A DNA stretch of 64,000 nucleotides. It comes from Somniosus microcephalus. Taxonomy: Eukaryota. The position numbers were made by a program, and so were the translations under genes. This document shows, piece after piece, positions 1,097 to 60,528 of the stretch; the first letter of the stretch is position 1; every line of letters starts with the position of its first letter. Below the pieces are notes generated by a model. The model was not told the DNA's origin and ran no database searches. It worked only from the letters and a program-made list of their open reading frames with translations. The stretch is taken from positions 76,198,001-76,262,000 of the forward strand of contig CM126217.1 in NCBI GenBank assembly GCA_052327205.1, read 5' to 3'.

Positions 1097-3256
1097 TATC
1101 TCTTTGTTTGTGTGCAACTTTTTTTCCCTCTTTGTTTTATATTTCTGTCTAACTCTTAAATCTCTCCTCGACAGGCCACCCATAAATGTTCTTTAGCTGA
1201 TGGATTCAATATTTATCAATATGTATCTCTTGCGTTTCTTAAGGCTGGGGAGTGCAGCAAGAAGCAATATATAGTGTATTTATAGAAGGATTAAGTAAGA
1301 AGAGGCCGTCAGAGAGGTGCTACAGGTGAGTAGGTGGAACTGAGGCTCAGGCCAGGAGGAGCTGAGGTGGAAGTTATGGGCAAGAGGAAGCAGGAGGTTG
1401 GAGCACACGGGGACTGGGAATAATCAGTGAGATTTCAGTCTGGGGCATGAGAAGACTTGAGATGTAGGAGTACCCGTAGAATGGGATGTCCTCTAGTAAA
1501 CAAGGAATACTTAATCTCAGCCCCCAGAGAGTGGATCTCTGGGGCAAAATCTATTGGACAGTTTTCCAACAGTACTTCAGTCATTTTATAACTAAGTTTA
1601 ACTATTGGTAATGACTTGTTTTTTTTATATTATAACCTTAATTTTTTGATGTATATAGTCGACTGGCTGAGGAAACAGTATGGCCACGCATAGAAGTTTG
1701 AAAAAATGTTTTGAGTGATTTGATTGTTTTGCTTTGTGGCAGTTGCTGGTTTCTGATTGGCAGCTTTGAAAATATTTGAGTAACTTGATTAGTTGGTGTT
1801 TTTTCATGTGGAGGGTGTTGATTCATGCTGGGTAACATTTCCTACCGGTCTGTATTTCTACAAATCTGTGTGGTTAACTTAACAGATAATGGTTATTTCG
1901 GCCAATCAAATGCAAGAGCGACAGGTCTGTTGGATATGTTATAATTTGAAGTGTGAGGAACAATTGCAACAAACTATGCATACACGCTAGACTCAAGACT
2001 TTAAATGATGTAGACACATGTACATTTTAAATGTTATTGTCCTTCCACAAATAGCTAGTTATTAGAGGACCTCCAGGTCATATTGTAAAATTTCCCCCAT
2101 TTCAAGTTATTTTGTGTGAGATGAACAATCCATCCTGTTAATTTGTAGCTTTCTGAAAAACCCAGTATTCAGAATCACAAATTGATTGCATTACTTCCTA
2201 AACAAATCCTTGCTGATACATGAAGTAGCACAGTGCAAGAGGTTGAGCTGCAACTACTCTATAAATAATCAGTTGGTTTGTTGGTGCTTGGGAGAGGAGG
2301 TATAAAAATAACGAGAACTGCCAACTGTTGGAATACGAGGCCTGGGTCCTTTTGTTCTGTTCGGTCGTAACGTTATCATGCTCAGTTCTTGGCTTAATTA
2401 TGTTCCACCGAACATGTTAAACAATAAACAGATTTTGAAGGATTCTAAAAAAAAAAAACCCAATAACTTGGAGAACAGGAACAAAAAGAAAATATTACTA
2501 AATTTAGAGCAATGGAAGAGATTTTAAAATGTTTCGGCCTTTCCCATTGAGTGAGATCAGATTCAATCTGACAGGGTTTAGATTTAAGTGAGTAAGCTCA
2601 TTAATATTAAGGAATCTAATATACACAGACACATTAGTCTTCAAGAGGCCATTTAAAGGGTACAGTTGAAGGAAAACAACCTTTGGAATTAGCCAGGATC
2701 TCAAACTTAAGATCATCGACCCTGTAACCAGTAATCTTGCGAATTCTTTAAACATCTTGTATAATATGACAGACAAAATCAGAAGGTGTAAACAAGAGGA
2801 TGTTGTCAACATATCAGAAGATCTTACGTTGTTTGTCTCTAATCTCGACATATCCTGGTGAGCATTAGTAGCTGTTATTTGTGCTTTTACAGCAATCCTT
2901 GCAGCTCAATCTTTAGTTTGAGAACAAAGGTCAAAGACAGATCTTGCACATCTCTGGCATTCTAACACCGTACCTGCATCAATGACGGTCTCTCCCAAAG
3001 TGTCAATCCAACTTCAAACTTTATTTAGAAAGCCAAACTTCCAGCACCCAAAACAGACAAGTCCACTCCACTTTGCCAAATACGTTTTTACCATTAACTG
3101 AAACAACAGATACTGGTGTCATTTATTCTCTGCATGATAAAAGTACCATAAATGTAAACCTCACTTTATCAGTAGGGTATCTGGCCAGAAAAGAATTAGA
3201 CTGATTAGGGACTAGAGTAACCCAGTCGAAGATGATTTTGGAATCAATATTGAGGA

Positions 3257-3320
3257 GTAAAGCACCTTGAGGCATTTTACTACGATAAAGGTGCTACATA
3301 AATGCAAGTCGTTGTTGTTG
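3257..3320 (+). repeat. Short L2/SINE 3' tail fragment
   Basis: gtaaagcaccttgaggcattttactacgataaaggtgctacataaatgcaagtcgttgttgttg matches the tail at 170-246. Confidence 0.6.
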
Positions 3321-4565
3321 AGTGACATGTGGCTAAAACTGAACCTTTTTTAAAAAAAAGAGTAAAAAATAGCTTGATTCAATATATCCGGTAGGTAGCC
3401 TTTGCCGCTGGCTTCATTAGAAGTCTGTAACAAGAGAGGTTCAGAGGAAGGTGCCAATTTTTTCTTTAAATAAAATCCAGATGAGCATCATTCTGAGCTA
3501 GGAGCTTTGTGTGATGGAAGTATATTAATAGCATTTTCTATTTGTTGAGGAATAATTGGTTTCTCCAGCTCTTCCATTGCCGTTGATGCGGGTTTGGGTA
3601 ATTTCAGTAGTTTGAAATAAAAAAACTCAATCGGCATCAGAACATCCACTCATTCATTTATAAAATACCACAGAAAAGTTTTTTTTAAATGCTATTAATA
3701 TGATTTGGATTTGTAGTTAAATTATTAAGGAGTCTGCCAAAATCTATCTATATATATATATAAAAGGATATGTCTCTCTGTCTGTCTCTCTGTCCGGCTA
3801 TACAATCAAAGTTATAGAGTGTACCTACACATATGTTATATCAAAAGAAAGCTCATCATTAGGGGACTCTTGTAGGCGTATTTACTTTTTGCTCGGACAA
3901 AAATTGTGCCGACGGTCGGACAAAAGTTGTGCCGGCGGTATCCAAAAAACGTTCAAATTCTGCTCATTATCCGCTCATTTGCATCGAGTGGGGGCGGGTT
4001 CATTGTGTGTGCGGGCGGGCCATCCTACAGTTGAGTGACGTGATGATTGACCAATCCTACAGTTCAGTGACCTGACGGTTGACCAATCGGTGTGTGTGTG
4101 GGCGGGCCTTATCATTCTGAACCGAGGTGACTGGCTGCCATCTTGATTCCAAACTGTTCATTTCTTTTTCCCACTTTCTGTATGTTTCTTTTCAAATCTA
4201 CATTTCCAGCAAAAAAAAGTTGCTTTTAAAACACAAATTGTTTTTAAAAAAAATTAATTAATTTGTAAATCTTTTCTCTAACATCTAAAATTTTCCTACC
4301 TTTCACCGTTTTTCCAGGCTTGTAAGCCTGGGCCTCTGTTGCCCAGCCACGCCCGAGCTAGGCACCTCCCGTCGCGCTCAACAAACGGCTTACGATCGCC
4401 GCCATCTTTGTGAAGGCTGGAGGGGGCGGCCTGAACCGAGCGTCGCCACCGCCGCCATCTTAGTAAAGGCGGGTGGGGCAGGAGTCAGCGCGCGTGACTT
4501 GAGTCTGGCCGGGCCTCACGCGGTAGGTTGTGCGGCGGCGTCTCTCTCTCTGCTCTTGAAGCTGG

Positions 4566-4720
4566 CTCGGGCGGGGGGGGCGGGGCTCGGAGGATCGGGG
4601 TTCGGCAGATCGGGGCTTGGGGGGGCGGGGCTCGGGAGATCAGGCCTCGGGAGATCGGGCCTCGGGAGGGCGGGGCTCGGGAGGGCGGGGCTCGGGAGAT
4701 CGGGGGGCGGGGCTCGGGCT
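4566..4720. repeat. 15-bp GC-rich tandem repeat inside the Helitron (about 10 units)
   Basis: Units GGGCGGGGCTCGGGA / GATCGGGCCTCGGGA, seen as the [10 protein letters not shown] 5-aa periodicity in the ORF track. Confidence 0.9.
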
Positions 4721-4729
4721 GACGGGGCG

Positions 4730-5957
4730 CTCCCCTCTCCCCCTCCTTCCCCCTCCTCCCCATTCACCCCCCTCCCCCTTCCTCCCCCCCTCCTTCCCCC
4801 TCCTCCCCATTCACCCCCCTCCCCCTTCCTCCCCCCCTCCTTCCCCCTCCCCTTCTTCCCCCTCCTTCCCCCCCTTCTTCCCCCTCCCCCCTCGCACCTC
4901 CCCCTTCTTGCCCCCCCTCCCCGCTCTTCCCCCCGCCCTTCTTTCCCCGCTCCCTTCTTTCCCCGCTCCCCGCTCCCCCTTCTTCCCCCGCTCCCCCTTC
5001 TTCCCCCCCTCCCCGCTCCCCCTTCTTCCCCCCTCCCCCTTCTTCCCCCCCTCCCCCTCCTCCCCCTTCTTCCCCCCTCCCCCTTCTTCCCCCCTCCCCC
5101 CCCTCCCCCTTCTTCCCCCCCTCCCCCCCTCCCCCTTCTTCCCCCCTCCCCGCTCCCCCTTCTTCCCCCCCTCCCCGCTCCCCCTTCTTCCCCCCCTCCC
5201 CGCTCCCCCTTCTTCCCCCGCTCCCCCTTCTTCCCCCCCTCCCCGCTCCCCCTTCTTCCCCCCCTCCCCGCTCCCCCTTCTTCCCCCCCTCCCCCTTCTT
5301 CCCCCCCCTCCCCGCTCCCCCTTCTTCCCCCTCCCCGCTCCCCCTTCTTCCCCCCTCCCCCTTCTTCCCCCCTCCCCGCTCCCCCTTCTTCCCCCCTCCC
5401 CGCTCCCCCTTCTTCCCCACTCCCCCTTCCCCTCTCCCCCTTCTTCCCCCCCTCTCCCCCTTCTTCCCCCCCCCTTCTTCCCCCCCTCCCCGCTCCCCCT
5501 TCTTCCCCCCTCCCCGCTCCCCCTTCTTCCCCCTCCCCCCTTCTCCGCTCCCCCTTCTCCCCCCTCCCCGCTCCCTTCTTCCCCCTCCCCTTCTTCCCCC
5601 CCTCCCCTCCTTCCCCCTCCCCCTTCTTCCCCCCTCCCTCCCCCTTCTTCCCCCCTCCCTCCCCCCCTCTTCCTCCCCCCTCCCCTCCCGTTTCCTCCCC
5701 CCNNNNNNNNNNNNNNNNNNNNNNNNNNNNNNNNNNNNNNNNNNNNNNNNNNNNNNNNNNNNNNNNNNNNNNNNNNNNNNNNNNNNNNNNNNNNNNNNNN
5801 NNNNNNNNNNNNNNNNNNNNNNNNNNNNNNNNNNNNNNCCTTTCCTCCCCCCTCCCCTCCCCTTTCCCCCCTCCCCTCCCCTTCCCCCCCCCTCCCCTTT
5901 CCCCCCCTCCCCTCCCCCCTCCCTCCCCATTCCCCCCCCTCCCCTCCCCCCTCCCTC
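4730..5957. repeat. Polypyrimidine minisatellite with variable units such as CCCCTTCTTCCCCCCTCCCCGCT; includes N gap 5703-5838
   Basis: Almost pure C/T on the + strand with recurring CCCCTTCTT and CCCCGCT subunits. Confidence 0.9.
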
Positions 5958-7212
5958 CCCAGTCGCTCTCTCTCATCCCCCCCAGTCGCTCTCTCTCTTC
6001 CCCCCAGTCGCTCTCTCTTCCCCCCAGTCGCTCTCTCTTCCCCCCAGTCGCTCTCTCTTCCCCCCAGTCGCTCTCTCTCTTCCCCCCAGTCGCTCTCTCT
6101 CTTCCCCCCAGTCGCTCTCTCTCTTCCCCCCAGTCGCTCTCTCTCTTCCCCCCAGTCGCTCTCTCTCTTCCCCCCAGTCGCTCTCTCTCTTCCCCCAGTC
6201 GCTCTCTCTCTTCCCCCCAGTCGCTCTCTCTCTTCCCCCCGTCGCTCTCTCTCTTCCCCCCAGTCGCTCTCTCTCTTCCCCCCAGTCGCTCTCTCTCTTC
6301 CCCCCAGTCGCTCTCTCTCTTCCCCCCAGTCGCTCTCTCTCTTCCCCCCAGTCGCTCTCTCTCTTCCCCCCAGTCGCTCTCTCTTCCCCCCAGTCGCGCT
6401 CTCTCTTCCCCCCCAGTCGCGCTCTCTCTTCCCCCCAGTCGCTCTCTCTTCCCCCCAGTCGCTCTCTCTCTTCCCCCCAGTCGCTCTCTCTCTTCCCCCC
6501 AGTCGCTCTCTCTCTTCCCCCCAGTCGCTCTCTCTCTTCCCCCCAGTCGCTCTCTCTCTTCCCCCCAGTCGCTCTCTCTCTTCCCCCCCAGTCGCTCTCT
6601 CTCTTCCCCCCAGTCGCTCTCTCTCTTCCCCCCAGTCGCTCTCTCTTCCCCCCAGTCGCTCTCTCTCTTCCCCCCAGTCGCTCTCTCTCTTCCCCCCAGT
6701 CGCTCTCTCTCTTCCCCCCCAGTCGCTCTCTCTCTTCCCCCCAGTCGCTCTCTCTCTTCCCCCCAGTCGCTCGCTCTCTTCCCCCCCAGTCGCTCTCTCT
6801 CTTCCCCCCAGTCGCTCTCTCTCTTCCCCCCAGTCGCTCTCTCTCTTCCCCCCAGTCGCTCTCTCTCTTCCCCCCAGTCGCTCTCTCTCTTCCCCCCAGT
6901 CGCTCTCTCTCTTCCCCCCAGTCGCTCTCTCTCTTCCCCCCAGTCGCTCGCTCTCTTCCCCCCCAGTCGCTCGCTCTCTTCCCCCCCAGTCGCTCGCTCT
7001 CTTCCCCCCCAGTCGCTCTCTCTCTTCCCCCCAGTCGCTCTCTCTCTTCCCCCCAGTCGCTCTCTCTCTTCCCCCCAGTCGCTCTCTCTCTTCCCCCCAG
7101 TCGCTCTCTCTCTTCCCCCCAGTCGCTCTCTCTCTTCCCCCCAGTCGCTCTCTCTCTTCCCCCCAGTCGCTCTCTCTCTTCCCCCCCAGTCGCTCTCTCT
7201 CTTCCCCCCAGT
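5958..7212. repeat. 22-bp minisatellite (AGTCGCTCTCTCTCTTCCCCCC)n, roughly 55-60 units
   Basis: Homogeneous tandem array with 20-24 bp length variants, ending about 45 bp before the Helitron CTAG. Confidence 0.95.
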
Positions 7213-7559
7213 ATATGCCCTCAAAGGACCCTCAGCACCGCCGGGCACTTCAGCTAGTTATATTTTAAAAAATAAGTTTCCTAATCAAGTGGTGGGGTCT
7301 GACTTTCAAATTAGAAACCACTTACTGCGTTAGAACATAAAATTAATGGAAATCAGTAGATTAAGATTCTACTTTTTTATATATTTATATATTTTCTACT
7401 CAATTTTCACTTTTTAACAGCTCCCCTTGATATGCTCCATATCCAATCCAAGAGAGCAGGCTATCTGCTCCCAGGTTCTTAAACTGGACTCTAGGAGGTG
7501 CTTGAAAGCAGCCTGAATAGACTTTTGTTCCCTCTCTACGGGGAAGCAACTGGCATGAA

Positions 7560-8015
7560 TTCAGCACATTCCTAGTGTGGTACATCTTAGATTGGGAACT
7601 CTTATCATGTGGGGAACTATCAGTGCAAACCTGCATCAAATGCACTGTGGCTACAGTGTGTACCATCCACAGGATGCATTGCAGCAACTCGCCAAGCTTA
7701 TTTTGACAGTATCTCCCTCCGCTGAAACCTCTACCACCAGGAAGTGCAAGAGCAGCAACATCATAAGAGCACTATTACCTCCACATTCATCTCAAAAATC
7801 ACACTCCATCATAGCTTGAACATATACTATCATTTGTTCATCAGTGCTTGGTTAAAATACGGTAATTCCCTACTTAACACCATCCTGGGACTACCATCAC
7901 CACAAGGACAGCACTAGTTCAAGGCTGTGGCTCACCACCAGCTTCTCGTGGCAACTAAGAATGGGCAATAAATGTAGTTCTGCCAGCGTCACCCACATCT
8001 GGGAACAATTATACC
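7560..8015 (+). mobile_element. Degenerate non-LTR retrotransposon 3' end (CR1/L2 group)
   Basis: Decayed C-terminal coding trace (TVATVCTIHRMHCSNSPSLF) and a 3' UTR ggctcaccaccagcttctc...gggcaataaatg...cccacatc followed by an A-rich tail. Confidence 0.55.
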
Positions 8016-8729
8016 AAAACAAAATTCAAAAGGAAATGTTTGTCACTGGAGGATGGATATTCTGGGTCCTCACACTTCTAGCGCATATTGAAAAGTCATG
8101 GGCAACACACCGACGATTTTCTTGCATGCTGGTGGCAGGCTAGGACTTAAATATCCAAGCTTATTAGCTGTCGTAATAGACAGCATAAAACATGAATTTT
8201 TGGAAGATTTTTTTCTTTTAAATTAGCTCTGAATGGACTTTCTCCTGTGTAAAAAAACAAACTTGCTTTCTACAACAAATAACATCGGACAAACCACTGC
8301 AATATTCTTACAAATCCCCAATAATATGCATGAAGAGCGCGTCAGATTTTCTTTCAAAACTTTTTGGTTTTCTTCCCCATTGAAAAAAGCTGTAACACAA
8401 TCCATGTATTAGTTTATATAGAACGCCTAAGAAGCTGACAATTCTGAATGCTTTTCAACATGAATTTGTATCACCACTAATTCATTCGGTTTTAAACTGG
8501 GGATATTCAGGAACTCAAATCCCTCAGTGCATAATTTTATTTAAAAAATCTGGGGCAAAGTGCGTCCAACTTAGAAATTCTAGGCATAAAATTTGGTTTG
8601 AATGTTTTTTAAACCTCCAAGGAAAAGTCCCATCTAACGATTACCCTACCCCCCACCACCACAGTTCAGTAGCAGCAGTCACTCGCATAAGCAATCGGAA
8701 CATCTTACTTTTATTGGTGTTGACTCACA

Positions 8730-10155
8730 CNNNNNNNNNNNNNNNNNNNNNNNNNNNNNNNNNNNNNNNNNNNNNNNNNNNNNNNNNNNNNNNNNNNNNN
8801 NNNNNNNNNNNNNNNNNNNNNNNNNNNNNNNNNNNNNNNNNNNNNNNNNNNNNNNNNNNNNNNNNNNNNNNNNNNNNNNNNNNNNNNNNNNNNNNNNNNN
8901 NNNNNNNNNNNNNNNNNNNNNNNNNNNNNNNNNNNNNNNNNNNNNNNNNNNNNNNNNNNNNNNNNNNNNNNNNNNNNNNNNNNNNNNNNNNNNNNNNNNN
9001 NNNNNNNNNNNNNNNNNNNNNNNNNNNNNNNNNNNNNNNNNNNNNNNNNNNNNNNNNNNNNNNNNNNNNNNNNNNNNNNNNNNNNNNNNNNNNNNNNNNN
9101 NNNNNNNNNNNNNNNNNNNNNNNNNNNNNNNNNNNNNNNNNNNNNNNNNNNNNNNNNNNNNNNNNNNNNNNNNNNNNNNNNNNNNNNNNNNNNNNNNNNN
9201 NNNNNNNNNNNNNNNNNNNNNNNNNNNNNNCTGGGTCTGCGCTGGAGCCAAGCCCCGGGAACGGGCGTGAGCCGGCTTGAGGCTGTGAGAGAGGGCCGGG
9301 CCCGATTGCCGGGGTAACCCTTCCCCCCTCGTCCCGCCCTCCCGAGCCCCGCCCCCGCCCAAGCCGGCTTCAAGACCGCCGATTCGCTCGCGCTCTGGGC
9401 CGACGTTGACGCCGCGCGCTGCCTGCCGCCCCCACCCCGCCTTTACTAAGATGGCGGCGATGGCTATGCTCGCCTCAGTCCCGCGCCGCCAGCCTTAGAA
9501 AGATGGCGGTGACCGCGGGCCGCTTGTTGAGCGGGACGGGAGGTGCGTAGCTCGGGCGTGGGCTGGGCAACAGAGGCCCAGGCTTCGAGGCCTGCCTGCA
9601 AAAACGGTGAAAGGTAGGAAAATTATAGAGGTTAGAGAAAAGATTTACAAATTAATTAACTTTTTATAAAACAATTTATGTTTTAAAAGCAACTTTTTTT
9701 TTTGCTGGAAATCTAGATTTGAAAAGAAACACGCAGAAAGTGGGAAAAAGAAATGAAGAGTTTGGAATGAAGATGGCGGCCACTCACCTCAACTCAGAAG
9801 CATTAGGCCCGCCCACACACGCACCGATTGGTCAACCGTCAGGTCACTGAACTGTAGGATTGGTCAATCGTCACGTCACTCGACTCTAGGATGGCCCGCC
9901 CGCACACGCAATGAACCCGCCCCCGTGACACAGCGATTGGTCGACTGTCGGGTCGCTCGACTGTACGATTGGTCAACCTTCACATCACTCGATGCTAATG
10001 AGCGGATAATGAGCGGAATTTTGAACGTTTTTTGGATACCGTCGTCCGACCAGAACGTAAATACGCCTATGAGAGTCCCCTAATGATAAGCTTTCTTTTG
10101 ATATAACATATGTGTCGGTACGCTCTATAACTTTTGATTGTATAGCCGGACGGAC
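8730..10155 (-). mobile_element. Non-autonomous Helitron-like element, copy 2 (5' tip lost; 3' part in N gap 8731-9230)
   Basis: 9335-10153 is the reverse complement of 3793-4600 with substitutions and indels, e.g. agagtcccctaatgataagctttcttttgatataacatatgtg vs cacatatgttatatcaaaagaaagctcatcattaggggactct. The left boundary is inferred only. Confidence 0.75.
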
Positions 10156-11950
10156 TATTAGCATAACCCTCTATTCTCTTCTCCCCATATGCTTGTCCCC
10201 TTAAATGCATCTATACTATTCGCTTCAACTGCTCCCTGTGGTAGCGAGTTTCACATTCTCACCACTCTTTGGATAAAGAATTTTCTTCTGAATTCCCTTT
10301 TGGATTTCTTGGTGTCTATCTTATATTGATGGCCTCTAGTTATGCTCTTCCCCACAAATGGAAATATTCTCTCTATATCCACTCTATCAAAACCTCTCAG
10401 AATTTTAAAGACTTCTATTAGGTCATCCCTGAGCCTTCTTTTTTCAAGAGAAAAGAGACCCAGCCTTTTCATCCTTTCCTGATATGTATATCCTCACATT
10501 TCTGGTATCAACCTTCTCTGCACCCTTTCCAGTGCCTCTATATCCTTTTTATAATATGGTGACCAGAACTGCATGCAGTGCTCTCAATGTGGTCTAACCA
10601 AGATTCGATAGAGGTTTAGCATAACTTCCCTACTTTTCAATTCTATTCCTCTAGAAATAAACCCTACTGCTTGGTTTGCCTTTTTTATGGTCTTGCTAAC
10701 CTATGATGCAACTTTTAGTGATTTGTGTATTTGTACTCCGAGATCTCTTTGTTCCTCTACCCCACCTAGACTTGCACCCTCCAAGTGATAAGTGACCTCC
10801 CTATTCTTCCGACCAAAATGTAATAGCTCACATTTATCTGTGTTGAACTTCATTTGCCAATTATTTACCCATTCTGCAAGTTTATTAATGTCCTCCTGTA
10901 ATTTGTTGCAGTCCTCCTCAGTATTGACTATCCTCCCCCCACTAATTTGGTGTCATCCGCAAATTTAGAAATTGTGTTTTTGATTCCAAAGTCTAAATCA
11001 TTAACATAAATTGTGAACAACAGTGGTCCCAGCACTGATCCTTGTGTAATACCACTACCCACCTTCTGCCACTGTGAATAGCTACCTTTACTCCCACTCT
11101 CTGCTTTCTGTCTTGAAGCCAGCTAACAATCCATTCTGCTACTTGTCCCCTGACTCCACATGCTCTGACCTTATTCATCAGTCTATTATGGGGTACCTTA
11201 TCGAAGGCCTTTTGAAAATCTAGATAAATTACATCTACTGCATTACCATTGTCTACTCTCTCTGTTACCTCTTCAAAAAATTCAATAAGGTTGGTCAAGC
11301 AAGACTTTCCCTTTTGAAATCCATGCTGACTATTCATTATTATACTTTTCATTTCTAGATGTTCTTCTATTCTCTCCATTATTTTTCCTACCACCGATGT
11401 TAAGCTGACTGGTCTATAATTCCCTGGACATGTTCTATCTCCCTTCTTAAATATAGGTATTACATTAGCTATCTACCAGTCCTCTGGCACTACACCTTTT
11501 TCTAACGAATTATTAAATATGTGTAGTAATGCCTCTGCTATCTCTTCTCTAGATTATTTTAAAATGCAGGGATGCAATCCATCCGGACCAGGGGTTTTAT
11601 CCTCTTTGAGGTTGATTCGTTTATTTAATATAGCCCCTTTTTTATTTTAAATACACTTATCTCATTACTCATCTCATCATCCAATATCATGTCCATCTGT
11701 TCTATCTCCCTGGTAAATACCGAAGCGAAATAATAATTTAATATTTCTGCCATCTCCCTATCGTTACCTGTGGTATTGTCCTGTCTATCCCTTAATGGCC
11801 CTATTCCCATCCCAACCTTCCTTTTTTATTGATGTGCCTGTAAAATATTTTACTATTTTATTTTATGTTCCTTGATAATTTAATGTCACACTTCCTCTTT
11901 GCCTTCCTAATTGTTTTTTTGACTTCTTTCCTAATCCCTTCGTATTCTCT
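10155..11950 (-). mobile_element. CR1 LINE, 5'-truncated and frameshifted RT region
   Basis: ORF pieces include AEILNYYFASVFT, QHGFQKGKSCLTNLIEFFEEVT...DVIYLDFQKAFDKVPH and LGLFSLEKRRLRDDLIEVFKIL. Confidence 0.95.
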
Positions 11951-26296: not shown

Positions 26297-26600
26297 ATGA
26301 GATGTTAATCTGAGGCCCTGTCTGCCCTCTCAGGTGGACGTAAGAGATCCCACGGCACTATTTTGAAGAAGAGCGGGGAGCTCTCCCCAGTGTGCTGGCC
26401 AATATTTATCCCTCAACCAACACCTGAAAACAGATTAATCTTATTGCTGTTTATGGGACCTTGCTGTGCACAAATTGGCTGCCACGTTTCCCACATTACA
26501 ACAGTTGACAACATTTCAAAAGTACTTCATTGGCTTTAAAACGCTTTGGGTCGCCCCGAGGTTGTGAAGGCCGCTTTGTAAGTATAAGTCTTTCTTTTTC
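26297..26600 (+). mobile_element. Deu-domain SINE, 5'-truncated
   Basis: ggcactattttgaagaagagc...ctggccaatatttatccctcaaccaac...caaattggctgcc, ending in a (tttc)n tail. Confidence 0.88.
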
Positions 26601-30076: not shown

Positions 30077-30548
30077 GTGTCAGCTGTGGCTCAGTTGGCA
30101 GCACCCTCACCTCTGAGTCAGAAGGTTGTGGGTTCATAGTCCCACTCCAGGGACTTGAGCACATAAAGCTAGGCTGACACTCCAGTGCAGTGCTGAGGGA
30201 GCGCTGCACTGTTGGAGGTGCTGTCTTTCAGATGAGATGTTAAACCAAGTCTGCTCTCTCAGTTGGATATAAAAGATTCCATGGCACTATTTCGAAGAGG
30301 AGCAGGGGAGTTACCCCCGGTGTCCTGGCCAATATTTATCCCTCAACCAACATAACAAAAACAGATTATCTGGTCATTATCACATTGCTGTTTGTGGGAG
30401 CTTGCTGTGCACAAATTGGCTGCCGCGTTTCCTACATTACAACAGTGACTACACTCCAAAAAAAAAAAGTACTTCATCGGCTGTAAAGTGCTTTGAGATG
30501 TCCGGTGGTCATGAAAGGCGCTATATAAATGCAAGTCTTTCTTTCTTT
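30077..30548 (+). mobile_element. Full-length tRNA-derived Deu-domain SINE (SacSINE1-like)
   Basis: A box tggctcagttgg, B-box-like ggttcatagtcc, a Deu-type core and an L2-like tail gcgctatataaatgcaagtctttctttcttt. Confidence 0.9.
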
Positions 30549-31104: not shown

Positions 31105-32541
31105 CCTTTCTTAGATACAGGGGTGGTGCCAGAGGACTGGAGAATTGCAAAAAAAGGCGTAAGGATAAACCCAGGAACCATAGGCTAGTCAGTTTAACCT
31201 TAGTAGTGGGGAAGCTTTTAGAAACGATAATCAGGGACAAAATTAACAGTCACTTGGACAAGTGAGGATTAATTAAGGAAAGCCATCACAGATATGTTAA
31301 GGGAAAATCATGTTTAACTAACTTGATTGAGTTTTTTGATGAGGTAACAGAGAGGGTTGATGAGGGCAATATACATGGATTTCCAAAAGGCGTTTGATAA
31401 AGTGCCACATAATGGGCTTGGCTGCAAAGTTGAAGCCCATGGAATAAAAGGGACCGTGGCAGCTTGGATATGAAATTGGCTAAGTGACAGGAAACAGAGA
31501 TTAGTGGTGAACAGTTGTCTTTTGGACTGGAGGAAGGTATACAGACAGTGTTGTTCCCCAGGGGTCGGTTCTAGGACCACGGCTTTTCTTGATATATGTT
31601 AATGACTTGGACTTGGGTGTACAGGGCACAATTTCAAAGTTTGCAAATGACACAAAACTTGGAAGTATAGTGAACAGTGAGGAGGATAGTGATAGACTTC
31701 AAGAAGACATAGAGAAGCTCGTGGAATGGGCGGACACATGGCAGATGAAATTTAACGCAGAAAAGTGCGAAGTGATACATTTTGGTAGAAAGAATGAGGA
31801 GAGGAAATATAAACTAAAGGGTACAATCCTAAAGGGGGCGCATGAACAGAGAGACCTGGGGGTACATGTGCACAAATCATTGAAGATGGCAGGACAGGTT
31901 GAGAAAGCGGTTAAAAAAACATACGGGATCCTGGGCTTCATAAATAGAGGCATAGAGTACAAAAGCGTGGAAGTTATGATGAACCTTTATAAAACACTGG
32001 TTCGGTCTCAACTGGAGTAGGAAGGATGTGAAGGCCTTAGAGAGGGTGCAGAAAAGATTTACAAGAATGGTTCCAGGGATGAGGGACTTCAGTTACGTGA
32101 ACAGACTAGAGAAGCTAGGGTTGTTCTCCTTAGAGCAAAGAAGGTTGAGAGGAGATTTGATAGAGGTGTTCAAAACCATGAGGGTTCTAGACAGAGTAGA
32201 TAGAGAGAAACTGTTCCCATTGACAGAAGGGTCGAGAACCAGAGGACACAGATTTAAGGTGATTGGCAGAGGAACCAAAGGCAACATGAGGGAAAAACTT
32301 TTTTACGCAGCGAGTGGTTATGATCTGGAATGCACTGCCTGAAAGGGTGGTGGAAGCAGACTCAATTACGGCTTTCAAAATGGAGTTGGATACGTACCTG
32401 AAGGAAAAAAAATTGCAGGGCTACAGAGAAAGGGTGGGAAGTGGGACTATCTGAAGTGCTCTTGCAGAGAGCTGGCACGGGCTTGACAGGCCGAATGGCC
32501 TCCTTCTGTGCTGTAACCATTCTTTGATTCTATGATTTTAT
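31105..32541 (+). mobile_element. CR1 LINE, 5'-truncated and degenerate
   Basis: IYVNDLDLGVQGTISKFANDTKLG, WQMKFNAEKCEVIHFG and LGLFSLEQRRLRGDLIEVFK; tail attctttgattctatgattttatg. Confidence 0.95.
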
Positions 32542-40617: not shown

Positions 40618-41129
40618 ATAGAATAATAGAATCATAGAATGGTTACAGCACAGAAGGAGGCCACTCAGCCCATCGAGCCCGTGCCAGCTCTCTGCAAGAG
40701 CCCTTCAGCTAGTCCCACTCCCCCACCCTTTCCCTGTAGCCCTGCAAAATTGTTTCCTTCAGGTACTTCTCCAATTCCCTTTTGAAAGCCATGATTGAGT
40801 CTGCCTCCACCACCCTTTCAGGTAGTGCATTCCAGATCATAACCACTCGCTGCGTAAAAAAGTTTTCCCTCATATTGTCTTTGGTTCTTTTGTCAATCAC
40901 CTTAAATCTGTGTCCTCTCGTTCTCAACCCTTCTGCCAATGGGAACTGTTTCTTTCTATCTACTTTGTCTAGATCCCTCATGATTTTGAACGCCTCTATC
41001 AAATCTCCTCTCAACCTTCTCTGCTCTAAGGAGAACAACCCCAGCTTCTCCAGTCTATCCACGTAACTGAAGTCCCTCATCCCTGGAATCATTCTTGTAA
41101 ATCATTTCTGCACCCTCTCTAAGGCCTTC
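40618..41129 (-). mobile_element. CR1 3' end
   Basis: ORF 40709-41092 (LGLFSLEQRRLRGDLIEAFK...FFTQRVVMIWNALP); tail atagaataatagaatcatagaat. Confidence 0.95.
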
Positions 41130-43090: not shown

Positions 43091-43531
43091 TGTCAGCTGT
43101 GGCTCAGTGGGTAGCACACTCGCCTCGGAGTCAGAAGGTTGTGGGTTCAGGGACTTGAGCACAAAAATCTAGGCTGACACTCCTGTGCAGTGCTGAGGGA
43201 GTGCTGCACTGTTGGAGGTGCCGTCTTTCGGATGAGACGTTAAACTGAGGCCCCATCTGCCTCTTCAGGTGGACGTAAAAGATCCTCTGGCACTATTTCG
43301 AAAAAGAGATGGGGAGTTATCCCTGGTGTCCTAGCCAATATTTATCCCTGAATTAACATCACTAAAACAGATTATCTGGTCATTATCACATTGCTGTTTG
43401 TGGGACCTTGCTGTGCGCAAATTAGCTGCCGCGTTTCCTACATTACAACAGTGACTATACTTCTTTGGCTGTAAAGCACTTTGGGACGTCCGGTGATCGT
43501 GAAAGGCGCTATATAAATGCAAGTCAGTCTT
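43091..43531 (+). mobile_element. Near full-length Deu-domain SINE
   Basis: Collinear with 30077-30548, with a short deletion removing part of the B box. Confidence 0.9.
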
Positions 43532-46500
43532 TTGTTTGGCAAAAGCTTGTAAATAAGGAGTTGTTATTTTATACACAGTAAGGCCATTCTCTCAACGGAA
43601 CAAATGAAATGCCAAACCAATCTGTCATCAAGTAGAAGAGCCTCTTTATAAGGCTGTCTTTTGGTACTATACAGAAAGCAGGCTGTGTATAGAGAACGTG
43701 TATTGATCTCAGCTGGGACATTAAAGGGAGTTGCTAAACAGAAACAGAGCATTTTTCCACAAGGAGAATCAACGAGACGGTCACTCTCGTGCATCTCCTA
43801 GCTTCATGTTCCGGAGCAGCATAGGCACGGATCTGAGAGCAGGTCGTGCCTCTGGCTTATTAATCAGTAAATGGTGAACGTTATCTGAAGAAGGGAAAAA
43901 ATAAAATAAGGCAGGGGAACAGAGAGTTGTTCTATTTTGATAGTCCTGAGCATTTGTCTCCAGTATTTATTATCTGTTTTTATAAAGAGCTTGGCAAAAT
44001 ATATATTATCACTGAGAGTGACAGATGGGTTTTATTTTCTACTGCACCCGTGGGATATTTTTATGCTACACTAGGCAGCAGTGTGCATATCTGAGAGAGA
44101 CTTCAATATCAGTTCACAGTGAAATATGGGCATTTTTGTGCTGTGGGCACACATCCCACAAGGAATTGGTTAGGATTCCCTGATCTCATTTCACATAGGA
44201 CACTTGCAGCAGGCAGAGAGAAGACATTTCATTCCATCAGTCTGGGGTGGATTTAAACCCAGGGTTTTGTGGAGGTGGAAGGATAGTGTGAAAATCAACT
44301 TGTCACCAATCATCTGGAGTGGCAGATTTGTGTCAACATTGTAGCATTCTATTTCCCCTATAGGAAATAGTGTATTTTGTTCTAGTCACTGTACTTCATA
44401 TAAAAACTCGATCTGTGGCATTTTTAAGTATTTAAAAATGACAGAGCACTGTGTGTTTCCCAGGGCTTAAAATCTGGGTAGACGGTGTTTTGTTTAGCAG
44501 CTAGTGTGAGTTGGGAAGGCATGGTGCTATAGTCAGTGGTTGGTGATGTAACATTTGCATATTGATTTGTCATTGGCCTGCAGGCATCTGTAAGGACTGC
44601 TATTGTTTAGAAGACCCAGGGGGTCCTGACTCCATCTTGACCACACGGTGCTGTACTGCTGTGAGTCAGATCAGACCTGATGCTTCATTAAAAGAGTTTA
44701 AACTGTAATACTCCGTTGTCCTGCAATTTATTATTTTTGTACAAAGTGTGCAAAACAAGAAAGGTGAGATGGCATTACTGCTGATTTATTTCTGTAATTC
44801 CTCTCATCTCAACATAGTTTCCATATTACAGTTGAATTCTTCCACTTCCCTTTTTGTCAGGTGCACATTTGTTGACCATTTTTGTTTTTAATTTGACTGT
44901 CTCCAGCTCTAGTGGAATAGTTTTTCTTTCTCTCAATTTCTTCCCCTTTCCTGCCTTGACGTTGGTAACTTCAGCAGCAGCCTTCAGTGCCTTGCCCAAG
45001 AGACAATTCTTCATGTGCGAACCTAGGCACAAAGGGTCATCAGAGAGTGGAAGAGGGACAGCAAGAAGGTTGGTGTTGCTAAAGGATGTAAGAGATATAT
45101 GGAGAGGCAAGCAGAACATTTAACATAAACACATCGGGAAAAGGAGAGAGAAGAAAAAAATAATAGAAGTGGAAAGAAAACAGAGAATATGAGAAACCGA
45201 AGTACAAACAATGGAGGAAGAGAAGAACATTAGCAAGAAGAAGCTAAGAGACCAAGAAGAAGGAAACATCTTGAGAGTAAAAAGTAAGTTATGAATATTA
45301 GTTGATCCCCATGGTGTAGCTCAAAGACAAATTTTTTTTTTAAATCTCTCTTTTCCTGTAATAACCTCTCTACAGGAGAAACCTGACCAAGATATGGGGC
45401 CACTCCTGTTCAGGCTCTAATGTCACTCTACACAGGAAGCATACCTCTTACAACCCATTCCTTAAAAGGCTCAGGTAACCGGGATGTTTTGTGAATTCTT
45501 ACGCTAAGGTATAGGCACAGGATTTGGGGTTTACAGTATCATTACATTCAAAATTTCCTTTGGGTTTGCATACTAGTGGCGCAGCACATGTTAACTTTTT
45601 AAAATTCGTTTTGTGTTGCAATTAATTATCATTAGTCTCTGAAGCAGCTTGCTGAGATGAATATGAGACGGAACACATTAAAACAGTTCAGAGCTTTTTT
45701 TTTTACAGTTTGTTCTGAAGATGTCTTGAATTAGCATGGTTATTTTGTGCAGGCCCCTGACCTCATCTTCAGCTAGCTGACCTCTCATCCTCTCATGTTG
45801 TCCTGGACTTGTCTAATGCTAATTAGAAGTCCAGTGTTTGTATTTCACTGCTGTAGTGGCTTCTAAAAAGTGATGGTTGACCAAACCACAATGGTGGTCT
45901 TTCACACAAAAAAGAAACCTTATAGAACAACAGGGAAGAAGGAAGAAAACCACAATATCCAACTGAGTCTGTTGCCTGACTCAACTATGAGTTGTTCAGT
46001 GTTATTTCAGGGAAGTTACTTTTACTCCTGTGTCTAAAAATGTTTCACTGATGGCTCATGGATTTGAAATAAACTCTGTTATATTAATGATGCCACCTAC
46101 CTTGTTAGCCATAATCTATTTAACCTTTTTTCCTGGTCCCTTGACCTAATAATCCATCTAACATTTTAAGTTAAAGATGGCTTGACAAGCTTTTAAAAAA
46201 AATTTTTTTTTTTTAAATTAAAGCAACGTGAGGTTACATAAAAATCTTATGATATACAAGTTTCCATTTACATCTGTTTCAACAGAAGTCAGGTAATGGG
46301 AGGTATCCATGGTTGTTGCGTATTTATGCAGTGCCTGTTGAAGTGTAATAATTGACCACACATGGTTTGCTTGATTTGACTGTTCTTGACTGCTGATTGT
46401 CTGTCTGCTGATGGGTAGGACAGGACAGCCCGACAGGCTCTCCTTCAGTATAGCCTGGGTGATTTCTTTTTGCATCTCCTTTTGACTATTTCTTATCAGA

Positions 46501-59915: not shown

Positions 59916-60528
59916 ATAGAGGTAGAGTACAAAAGCGTGGAAGTTATGATGAACCTTTATAAAACACTGGTTCGGCCTCAACTGAAATATTGTGTCCAAT
60001 TCTGGACACCGCATTTTAGGAAGGATGTGAAGGCCTTAGAGAGGGTGCAGAAAAGATTTACGAGAATGATTCAGGGATGAGGGACTTCAGTTATATGGAT
60101 AGACTGGAGAATCTGGGGTTGTTCTCCTTAGAGCAGAGAAGAGTGAGAGGAGATTTGATAGAGGTGTTCAAAATCTTGAGGGGTCTGGACAGAGTAGATA
60201 GAGAGAAATTGTTCCCATTGGTAGAGGGTCGAGAACCAGAGGACACAGATTTAAGCTGATTGGCAAAAGAATCAAAGGCGACATAAGAAAAAACTATTTT
60301 ACGCAGCGAGTGGTTAGGATCTGGAATGCACTGCCTGAAAGGGTGGTGGAGGCAGATTCAATCACTGCTTTCAAAAGGGAGCTGGATAAGTACCTGAAGG
60401 AAAGAAATTTGCAGGGCTACAGGGAAAGGGCGGGGGAGTGGGACTAGCTGAAGTGCTCTTGCAGAGAGCTGGCACGGGTTTGATGGGCCGACGAATGGCC
60501 TTCTTCCGTGCTGTAACCATTCTATGAA
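59916..60528 (+). mobile_element. CR1 3' end, same subfamily as 31105-32541 and 40618-41129
   Basis: LGLFSLEQRRVRGDLIEVFKIL; 3' UTR nearly identical to 32430-32530. Confidence 0.95.

Follow-up and report, generated by a model that had tools for sequence, protein, structure and literature searches.

We show that positions 3743-7257 of the analyzed window (the whole stretch of 64,000 nucleotides) hold a real yet fairly ordinary rolling-circle (Helitron) copy, whose family is very abundant in a shark- or ray-like fish. We assign a probability of about 85% to these positions being one full-length non-autonomous canonical Helitron (HLE1) from a family of ~10^4 copies. The element spans 3515 bases, of which ~2.5 kb (~70%) is simple or tandem repeat. 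It has two termini, a sharp 5' boundary, and a 3' end that falls within a Rep/PIF1-linked terminus type. Family abundance is high in organisms E, F, and G, while organism A has no cover. The features of the locus are as follows (a caret marks a junction).

3742..3743, plus strand: left junction, host A then the first element base (A^TC), from the sequence and a step in contig depth
3743..3765, plus strand: 5' terminus, TC and then a TA-rich run closing in TATAAAA, from the sequence
3772..3795, plus strand: short (TC/TGTC) microsatellite just within the 5' end, from the sequence
3990..4110, plus strand: promoter-like block with GC boxes at 3992, 4013, and 4100 and GACCAATC at 4049 and 4081, from motif counts against shuffles
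4022-4088, plus strand: 32-base tandem unit carrying GACCAATC, from repeat analysis
4127..4317, plus strand: intron-like segment of 191 nt, from its splice-motif pattern
4137..4461, plus strand: three YY1-like GCCATCTT motifs at 4137, 4401, and 4454, from motif counts against shuffles
within 4137..4461, plus strand: full CCGCCATCTT at 4399 and 4452, equal to the last two YY1-like motifs
4574..4718, plus strand: G+C-rich 15-base minisatellite, ~8 copies
4730..5960, plus strand: low-complexity C/T-rich tract, including a 136-N assembly gap (5703-5838)
5957..7212, plus strand: tandem array of a 22-base unit, 57.3 copies with 96% matches, 35 of 56 parsed units being identical
7230..7245, plus strand: decayed subterminal hairpin, arms 7230-7234 and 7241-7245, loop 7235-7240
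7254..7258, plus strand: 3' terminus CTAG (7254-7257), then host T and A+T-rich flank
9231..10154, minus strand: second, partial copy, from sequence comparison

The termini are those of a canonical Helitron. Both junctions given in the preliminary description, A^TCTATCTATATATA at the 5' end and GCCGGGCACTTCAGCTAG^T at the 3' end, are present as claimed. The absence of a target site duplication (TSD) also holds: the insertion lies between A and T with 0 duplicated bases, and terminal inverted repeats (TIRs) are absent as well (2/20 matches between the ends). Set against the defining features of HLE1, as given in PMC11417382, the element shares the TC and CTAG termini, the A^T target, the lack of TSD and TIR, a putative stem in the family register, and the lack of coding capacity; it differs in its decayed stem and its high repeat content. 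A Helentron/Helitron2 (HLE2) derivative or a TIR MITE is hardly credible, given a target of A^T rather than T^T, these termini, and the missing TIRs and TSD, even though Xenopus HLE2 elements more often have minisatellite arrays in their interior (PMC12001565). The window has many A^TC and CTRR^T words by themselves (869 and 255, respectively, on the plus strand), so the termini alone prove little. The case rests on the depth step, an orthologous contig from run X1, and 57 independent 3' ends.

Contig depth steps sharply at the 5' end. Depth was mapped in four runs (X1, X12, X13, and X15) out of 17 runs from 8 organisms, none of the 17 being recorded as RNA; the small shares of the remaining 13 do not count as evidence. 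Summed contig depth, which by the tool's own warning is no copy number, goes from 15.6 (X12) and 11.3 (X13) in the flank to 231,988 and 278,629 in the bin 3743-3792. Depth thus rises ~10,000-fold, and a step in the bin beginning at 3743 is seen in X12, X13, and X15, three of the four runs; X15 covers the family and almost no flank, and is thus uninformative about the insertion at 3743. In X12 (3291-3774) and X13 (3291-3765), individual contigs run across the junction. Joints entering the element at 3741-3745 from other flanks make up 4 of the 15 displayed (26 were found), their short side measuring merely 20-21 bases. The 5' TC terminus is therefore one that copies share sharply.

A relative without the family appears to retain the empty site. 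In X1, depth is near 10 over the flank and zero over 3843-4192. The first 457 bases of a 916-base X1 contig match 3289-3743, and the remaining 459 are unlike. The match ends on the shared T at 3743, as an empty A^T site predicts. We therefore regard this contig as a putative empty site. The preliminary description had proposed a search for such a site in relatives; the match stops exactly at 3743. The flank is 93-95% identical to organism A with gaps counted (5-7% difference), and the insertion appears younger than the divergence from that organism.

The 3' end is shared with repeat families of other organisms. The last 18 element bases and the target T are present at 57 metagenome loci (17 or 18 identical). 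Conservation ends past the T, with 55 distinct 20-base right flanks. These loci are the ends of repeat families whose AT-rich flanks are unrelated but which share a conserved 5-bp hairpin; at 3743-7257, the right flank is 15/15 A or T. The CTRR terminus is thus sharply shared, as judged on other organisms' families and not on the host's own copies. One locus, L032, codes for Helitron_like_N (E 7e-59) and PIF1 (E 9e-62), ending 230 bases before the same terminus. Of the 51 long open reading frames (ORFs) of these loci, 23 were searched with Pfam, and the one in L032 had Rep/helicase domains. Among the best 120 of 4120 relatives of its protein, those named include bdelloid rotifers, a pseudoscorpion, a flatworm, insects, and the frog Ascaphus; none of the named ones is a cartilaginous fish. 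Together, the depth step, the 57 loci, and L032 support the earlier call of a non-autonomous canonical Helitron with these ends. A Rep/Hel partner with the same ends was also envisaged there. L032 is a possible counterpart that shares the 3' end and belongs to another organism, and Pfam detected no Rep/helicase domain among 106 ORFs of the window (at least 78 aa; ORFs overlapping 4560-7213 left out). RVT_1 alone was detected, in 5 of these ORFs; short-exon host genes are beyond the reach of this search.

The 5' end also follows the layout of these families. In 19 of the 57 loci, a TA-rich start lies ahead of a shared 5' motif, the same layout as at 3743-7257, and a GT-type microsatellite occupies the equivalent 5' position in related families. 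Compared with these HLE1 families (L001-L057), the element has the last 18 bases, the loop, and the 5' layout (TC, TA-rich run, microsatellite) in common; the interiors are dissimilar, and one well-sampled family there is ~260-320 bases long and keeps its stem. Since none of the 57 loci resembles the 5' arm at the DNA level (E 0.01) and the arm looks like a Pol II promoter, it could instead be a different promoter-bearing repeat (for example LTR-like or SINE-like, with a satellite), the 3' tail being an unrelated Helitron remnant. We consider this very unlikely, because the sharp A^TC start, TA-rich run, and microsatellite are the layout of families with the same 3' terminus, there is no TSD, and Rfam returned 0 matches across 3000-10700.

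The subterminal hairpin, which in HLE1 elements lies ~12 bases from the 3' end, has decayed in this copy. The ten bases upstream of the 3' pattern are conserved in the 57 loci (top letter 0.49-0.96) and make up the stem. In the family register (7230-7234/7241-7245), 4-5 pairs form in 41/57 loci, compared with 14/1140 control arms; of the 5 pairs, 3743-7257 retains 2 of Watson-Crick type plus 1 wobble. Its fold is -0.8 kcal/mol against a median of -5.1 kcal/mol, and 3/57 loci are equally weak. The pairings first proposed for the stem (TGCCC 7216-7220 or CCC 7229-7231 with 7243-7247) are not in the family register, and they fold no better than shuffles (z = +0.79; 153/200 shuffles as good).

The two ends probably moved as a single unit. 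The 136-N gap lies within the element, and the description of the element as intact was therefore overstated, more so as most of its length is repeat. A composite locus, in which the 5' arm and 3' tail come from two Helitron insertions or were rearranged or mis-joined across the gap, is unlikely but has several points in its favor: the ends are separated by the gap and 2.5 kb of repeats, the evidence is from short-read contigs, and Helitrons abut or lie head to tail in related families (L030, L041, and L054, the last two having head-to-tail CTAG^TC junctions) and also in bats (PMC4778049). Nevertheless, the 64 kb contain a single 5'-type terminus and a single 3' terminus of the family type, which share a strand and are correctly ordered; the other partial 3' match, at 60460, lacks the GGG arm, and C/T-rich repeats occur on both sides of the gap. 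We thus favor one full-length element.

A related inverted copy lies nearby, as the preliminary description had noted, although it is partial and offers no proof of the ends. This copy 2 begins at the equivalent of 3789, that is, without the first 46 bases, and adjoins a LINE 3' UTR. Its CCAAT block is duplicated, and its 3' part runs into a 500-N gap. Because it is truncated at the 5' end and gap-hidden at the 3' end, it confirms neither element end. Over the best block, 453/503 bases are identical to copy 1 (10% difference). This exceeds the 5-7% difference between the flank and organism A, and so calls for diverged source subfamilies or fast CpG decay. The largest identity class of family contigs is 90-95% (3842/9109 in X12, SINE-tail contigs included). 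The proposal that the family is fairly young is accordingly borne out in part: the insertion seems later than the organism A split, but the largest class of contigs is 90-95% alike and the hairpin has decayed.

The 5' arm may carry a Pol II promoter and the first intron behind it, derived from a parent element or a captured host gene. CpGs are well preserved, as first described, with an observed/expected ratio of 0.98 (3743-4560); the two flanks have ratios of 0.37 and 0.36, and 10153-64000 has 0.36. The motifs are named for their likeness to consensus motifs (NF-Y-, Sp1-, and YY1-like). Four GC boxes fall in 3743-4560 (as many in 2/1000 shuffles), as do two GACCAATC motifs (as many in 0/1000, for a motif derived from the same sequence). 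A stricter NF-Y pattern occurs once, and 99/1000 shuffles have as many; plain CCAAT and TGACG counts in copy 1 are not above shuffles (645/1000 and 344/1000, respectively). For the YY1-like motifs, 0/1000 shuffles have as many in either copy, and the long form CCGCCATCTT is not found in the remainder of the window.

The intron-like segment comprises a donor-like site at 4127, a branch-like CTAAC (4278-4282), a pyrimidine tract, and a CAG ending at 4317. Both copies have the acceptor-like site. Copy 2 shows the complete donor-acceptor pattern (1/1000 shuffles), which is absent from copy 1, whose base 4131 differs from the letter found in >99% of family depth. What appears new here, and the one notable feature of the element, is a Helitron 5' arm in which promoter-like motifs and an intron-like segment exceed what shuffled sequence gives. 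A close parallel is offered by promoter-carrying bat Helitrons such as HelibatN3, with its NUBPL promoter, 5' UTR, first exon, and a portion of the first intron (PMC4224331; PMC4778049). Both are non-autonomous and number thousands of copies, and close to its 5' end each has a splice donor along with motifs of promoter type; this resemblance is at the motif level. In bats the donor gene and transcripts are known; here the cassette is a predicted one. Unlike HelibatN3, 3743-7257 seems to hold an acceptor too, and hence a whole intron.

Protein matches point to a cartilaginous-fish host, as previously suggested. For the LINE reverse transcriptase in the window, Chiloscyllium, Leucoraja, Mobula, and Hypanus are the four best-scoring named animals, all cartilaginous fishes, with 52-58% identity (among the best 120 of 274 matches, most of them unnamed). 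LINE proteins do not tell a shark host from a ray. Viral contigs gave 0 matches to two 3' patterns. Prokaryote genomes gave 2 matches to a 19-base interior word, which we attribute to chance as similarity ends at 19-20 bases.

A mechanism can be proposed from the Helraiser experiments (PMC4778049). A Rep/PIF1 transposase made elsewhere would nick at the 5' TC and peel one strand off. Peeling would halt once the hairpin and CTAG are reached, and the resulting circle would go in between A and T with no duplication. Transposition would need the ends alone, leaving the interior free; in 3743-7257 it would have been filled by simple repeats and the 22-base array. Because its hairpin has decayed, this copy would probably now terminate poorly.

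Helitrons are already on record from cartilaginous fishes. The whale shark paper lists Helitron (PMC8455134), and the HELIANO study and its supplement (PMC11417382) include Helitron-1_CM, Helitron-1_AmRa, and Helitron-2_AmRa and report HLE1 in 4/8 chondrichthyan genomes (Hypanus, 1,651; Mobula, 4,818; Leucoraja, 11,154; Carcharodon, 1), the four other sampled genomes having no row in that supplement. Thus, the suggestion that the family might be undescribed in cartilaginous fish fails at the superfamily level. The recorded elements resemble ours in class, host group, and an order of abundance near that of the skate. In the literature and the HELIANO supplement, we found no paper that describes the family or prints its 3' end. 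Listings may also exist in Supplementary File 3 for the spiny dogfish, in the whale shark repeat tables (13 of 24 files covered), and in PMC2997563. Heli1Xen1, from Xenopus and other vertebrates, shares the TC...CTAG termini, a TATATAAA-type 5' end, and a patchy distribution among relatives (PMC12001565); its hairpin sequence differs, and horizontal transfer is shown there for Heli1Xen1.

The class assignment is itself routine, as Helitrons are known from skates, rays, a chimaera, and the whale shark. What is added is a family that is defined, has its ends mapped, probably has an empty site on record, and has spread in a limited set of lineages. Insertions of this kind are handy presence/absence markers for close relatives. 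A bolder reading, which we hold only tentatively and consider doubtful, is that a Helitron recently entered one cartilaginous-fish lineage, possibly by horizontal transfer from an invertebrate-rich clade with the same 3' end, and that it then spread a functional CpG-island promoter and first intron in >10,000 copies. Should this be true, vertebrates would have a second case of promoter dispersal like that in bats. For a host that is a true shark, it would represent a burst among fishes in which HELIANO recorded no more than 1 element in four genomes. Were the 5' cassette an active, intron-bearing promoter, the family would supply many new transcription starts and splice sites to a slowly evolving vertebrate group.

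The element at 3743-7257 is a real non-autonomous Helitron of the canonical class HLE1, and with a probability of about 85% it is a single unit. The ends proposed in the preliminary description, A/TC at 3742/3743 and CTAG/T at 7257/7258 (slashes mark the insertion points), are present in the sequence. Its claim that a target-site duplication is lacking also stands, and a search for an inverted repeat at the two ends found none. Bare A/TC and CTRR/T words are common in the window (869 and 255, respectively), so evidence from outside the window is required. The element has a length of 3515 bases in five parts.

Features of the putative Helitron and its relative
3743-7257, plus strand: the element (copy 1), comprising
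5' arm, 818 bases
15-base minisatellite
C/T tract, 1.2 kb, enclosing a 136-N gap
22-base array, 57 copies
3' tail, 45 bases
9231-10154, minus strand: related partial copy (copy 2)

The 136-N gap lends some weight to a possible composite locus, in which the two ends would not belong to one unit. The evidence for the two ends comes from the metagenome and sequencing-run comparisons that follow.

The tail of the element is identified, from sequence comparison, as a Helitron terminus. This evidence comes from metagenome loci, not from the host's own family copies. Metagenomes were searched for the final 18 bases followed by the target T, with a single degenerate position, and 57 loci matched; many come from a few datasets and families, and they are thus not 57 independent lineages. 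Across them, the ten bases 5' of the pattern, and outside it, are conserved (top letter 0.49-0.96), and sequence past the target T is not (55 distinct flanks, mean A+T 80%). The conserved bases pair with the pattern as a 5-bp stem; 41 of the 57 loci keep 4-5 of these pairs, versus 14 of 1140 control arms. One locus, L032, encodes Helitron_like_N and PIF1 in a frame of 1227 aa that stops 230 bases short of the same terminus; an STPR frame lies upstream of this Rep frame, with one stop codon between them. Together, the conservation, the stem and the Rep/PIF1 frame show that the tail is a Helitron terminus.

L032:218-5219 (minus) is itself an autonomous Helitron that is nearly complete, with STPR, Rep, and PIF1. 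Its protein shares 76% identity with one from a bdelloid rotifer. It has 4120 relatives; in the 120 of them that were listed, the named organisms are rotifers, a pseudoscorpion, a flatworm, insects, and a frog, and no named cartilaginous fish appears. In 19 of the 57 loci, a TA-rich run and microsatellite open the element 260-320 bases upstream of the 3' end, the same layout as the 5' end of 3743-7257; the first base there is not always clear. These 19 loci, within L005-L057 (e.g., L031, L012, and L057), form a small family of non-autonomous Helitrons, 260-320 bases long with ends and stem intact, representing eukaryotic DNA in metagenome assemblies. CTAG/TC head-to-tail junctions occur in L041 and L054, and copies in L041, L054, and L030 lie head-to-tail or abutting, as rolling-circle replication predicts. 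The interior of 3743-7257 matches none of the 57 loci.

The hairpin of this copy has decayed. In the stem register (7230-7234 with 7241-7245), two pairs and one wobble are left, and folding of the final 33 bases gives -0.8 versus a median of -5.1 kcal/mol. Two subterminal stems suggested earlier fold no better than shuffles. By analogy with Helraiser (PMC4778049), a transposase encoded elsewhere would initiate at the 5' end, the hairpin would serve as terminator, and insertion would target AT within A+T-rich DNA. Loss of the Helraiser hairpin reduces efficiency to 8.8% and increases read-through, so the copy at 3743-7257 would probably move poorly. No transposase was found in the window, where 5 of 106 ORFs have Pfam matches, RVT_1 every time.

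Sequencing runs place the 5' boundary at 3743. A search with 3000-4560 listed 17 runs from eight coded organisms, and contigs of four runs were aligned on 2993-4492 (threshold 85% likeness). In X12 and X13 (organisms E and F), the unique flank has a summed depth of 11-20 for the most part. Depth is 158-172 in the final bin before the element and 232,000-279,000 in the next, which starts at 3743. Element-to-flank ratios of 6,000-61,000 (four bins computed) suggest a family abundance on the order of 10^4, summed contig depth not being copy number. One contig bridges the flank/element junction in each of these runs; thus, the samples of organisms E and F both have the insertion. In X15 (organism G), the family is present with the same majority letters, and the flank is nearly absent. 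In X1 (organism A), flank identity is 93-95% counting gaps and depth is zero over 3843-4192, contigs being a better guide to presence than to absence. A 916-base X1 contig aligns to 3289-3743 and is unlike beyond; its match ends one base past the A, exactly where the match of an empty A/T site would be expected to end, and the contig is thus a candidate empty site. Joints entering the element at 3741-3745 from other flanks make up 4 of 15 joints shown (26 found), their short side being only 20-21 bases.

A short, high-copy, SINE-tail-like repeat lies in the left flank (3260-3320), and several other family copies appear to begin directly after such tails. Over 4043-4142, Helitron to SINE-tail depth is 19,230 to 529 in X15, versus 605,279 to 126,251 in X12/X13. 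Depth around the CCAAT words and the donor also peaks more sharply in X15 than in X12 or X13.

Copy 2 belongs to the same repeat family, as had been proposed; it corroborates neither end of the element, the first 46 bases being absent and the copy running out in a 500-N gap. In the best block, 453 of 503 bases are identical to copy 1, and 13 of the 50 mismatches are CpG-type. Copy 2 carries the family majority letter at 14 of 15 listed sites checked (75 further sites lie beyond the listing). The 10% divergence between copies exceeds flank divergence from organism A, where the family was not seen, and this counts against the proposed reading; diverged source subfamilies plus CpG decay could explain it. 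A CCAAT/GC-box block of ~106 bases is tandemly duplicated in copy 2 (9928-9992) and other family members, and joints from 4089/4095 to 3990 in family contigs represent this duplication. A decayed LINE with reverse-transcriptase remnants (10160-11643, minus) abuts the truncated start of copy 2 through its 3' UTR; at the join, the LINE lacks the final stretch of its tail and the Helitron its first 46 bases, through deletion or because the gap hides them.

Other repeats include three fragments of LINE 3' ends, roughly 90% similar to one another (32030-32541, 40618-41129, and 60072-60491), from a younger retrotransposon family, and several SINE-like copies (26297-26597, 30148-30544, and 43148-43532). 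A LINE reverse transcriptase filed under the bacterium Carnobacterium (P0128), 58% identical to the window LINE, is probably host contamination.

LINE proteins of the window identify the host as a cartilaginous fish, either shark or ray. The suggestion that the family might be undescribed in cartilaginous fishes fails at superfamily level, Helitrons being already on record there. They are recorded in the whale shark (PMC8455134), and Helitron-1_CM, Helitron-1_AmRa, and Helitron-2_AmRa appear in the supplement of the HELIANO survey (PMC11417382). HELIANO reports HLE1 in 4 of 8 cartilaginous-fish genomes, with 1,651-11,154 elements in the batoids Hypanus, Mobula, and Leucoraja and 1 in the white shark; three other sharks and a sawfish have no row in it. 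Reviews call the elephant shark DNA-transposon-poor (PMC6817897, PMC5381603, PMC4350176), and PMC10468316, in its excerpted text, names Helitron in a reference only. Further background comes from PMC2997563, PMC12001565, and the EDTA v2 preprint. A search confined to the literature found no published description of this family.

The 5' arm resembles a promoter, a feature absent from the preliminary description. Its CpGs are preserved, as that description noted (observed/expected 0.98 versus 0.36-0.37 outside). Youth of the element and an unmethylated promoter state could each account for this, and the data fit either. The motif tests, based on consensus patterns for GC boxes, YY1-like motifs, and splice sites, were devised post hoc, with the sequence already viewed. 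The arm has four GC boxes (as many in 2 of 1000 shuffles), two GACCAATC words spaced 32 bases (0 of 1000, the word being derived from the same sequence), and three motifs resembling YY1 sites (0 of 1000). The corresponding counts in copy 2 are four, four, and three. Plain CCAAT and TGACG show no enrichment over shuffles in copy 1. An intron-like segment spans 4127-4317; copy 2 has the full donor-acceptor pattern (1 of 1000 shuffles) and copy 1 the acceptor only, its donor base 4131 deviating from the letter held by >99% of family depth. The YY1-like motifs are preceded by both CCAAT words and by three of the four GC boxes, an order that agrees with that of human promoters, where Sp1 and NF-Y activate upstream of the start and YY1 acts at or just after it (PMC11269187).

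The putative cassette may have been the promoter of the parent element from the start, or it may have been captured. Promoter capture is documented in bat Helitrons, alongside high amplification (PMC4224331). We regard it as conceivable, if rather unlikely, that a lineage-limited burst dispersed an active promoter-intron cassette.
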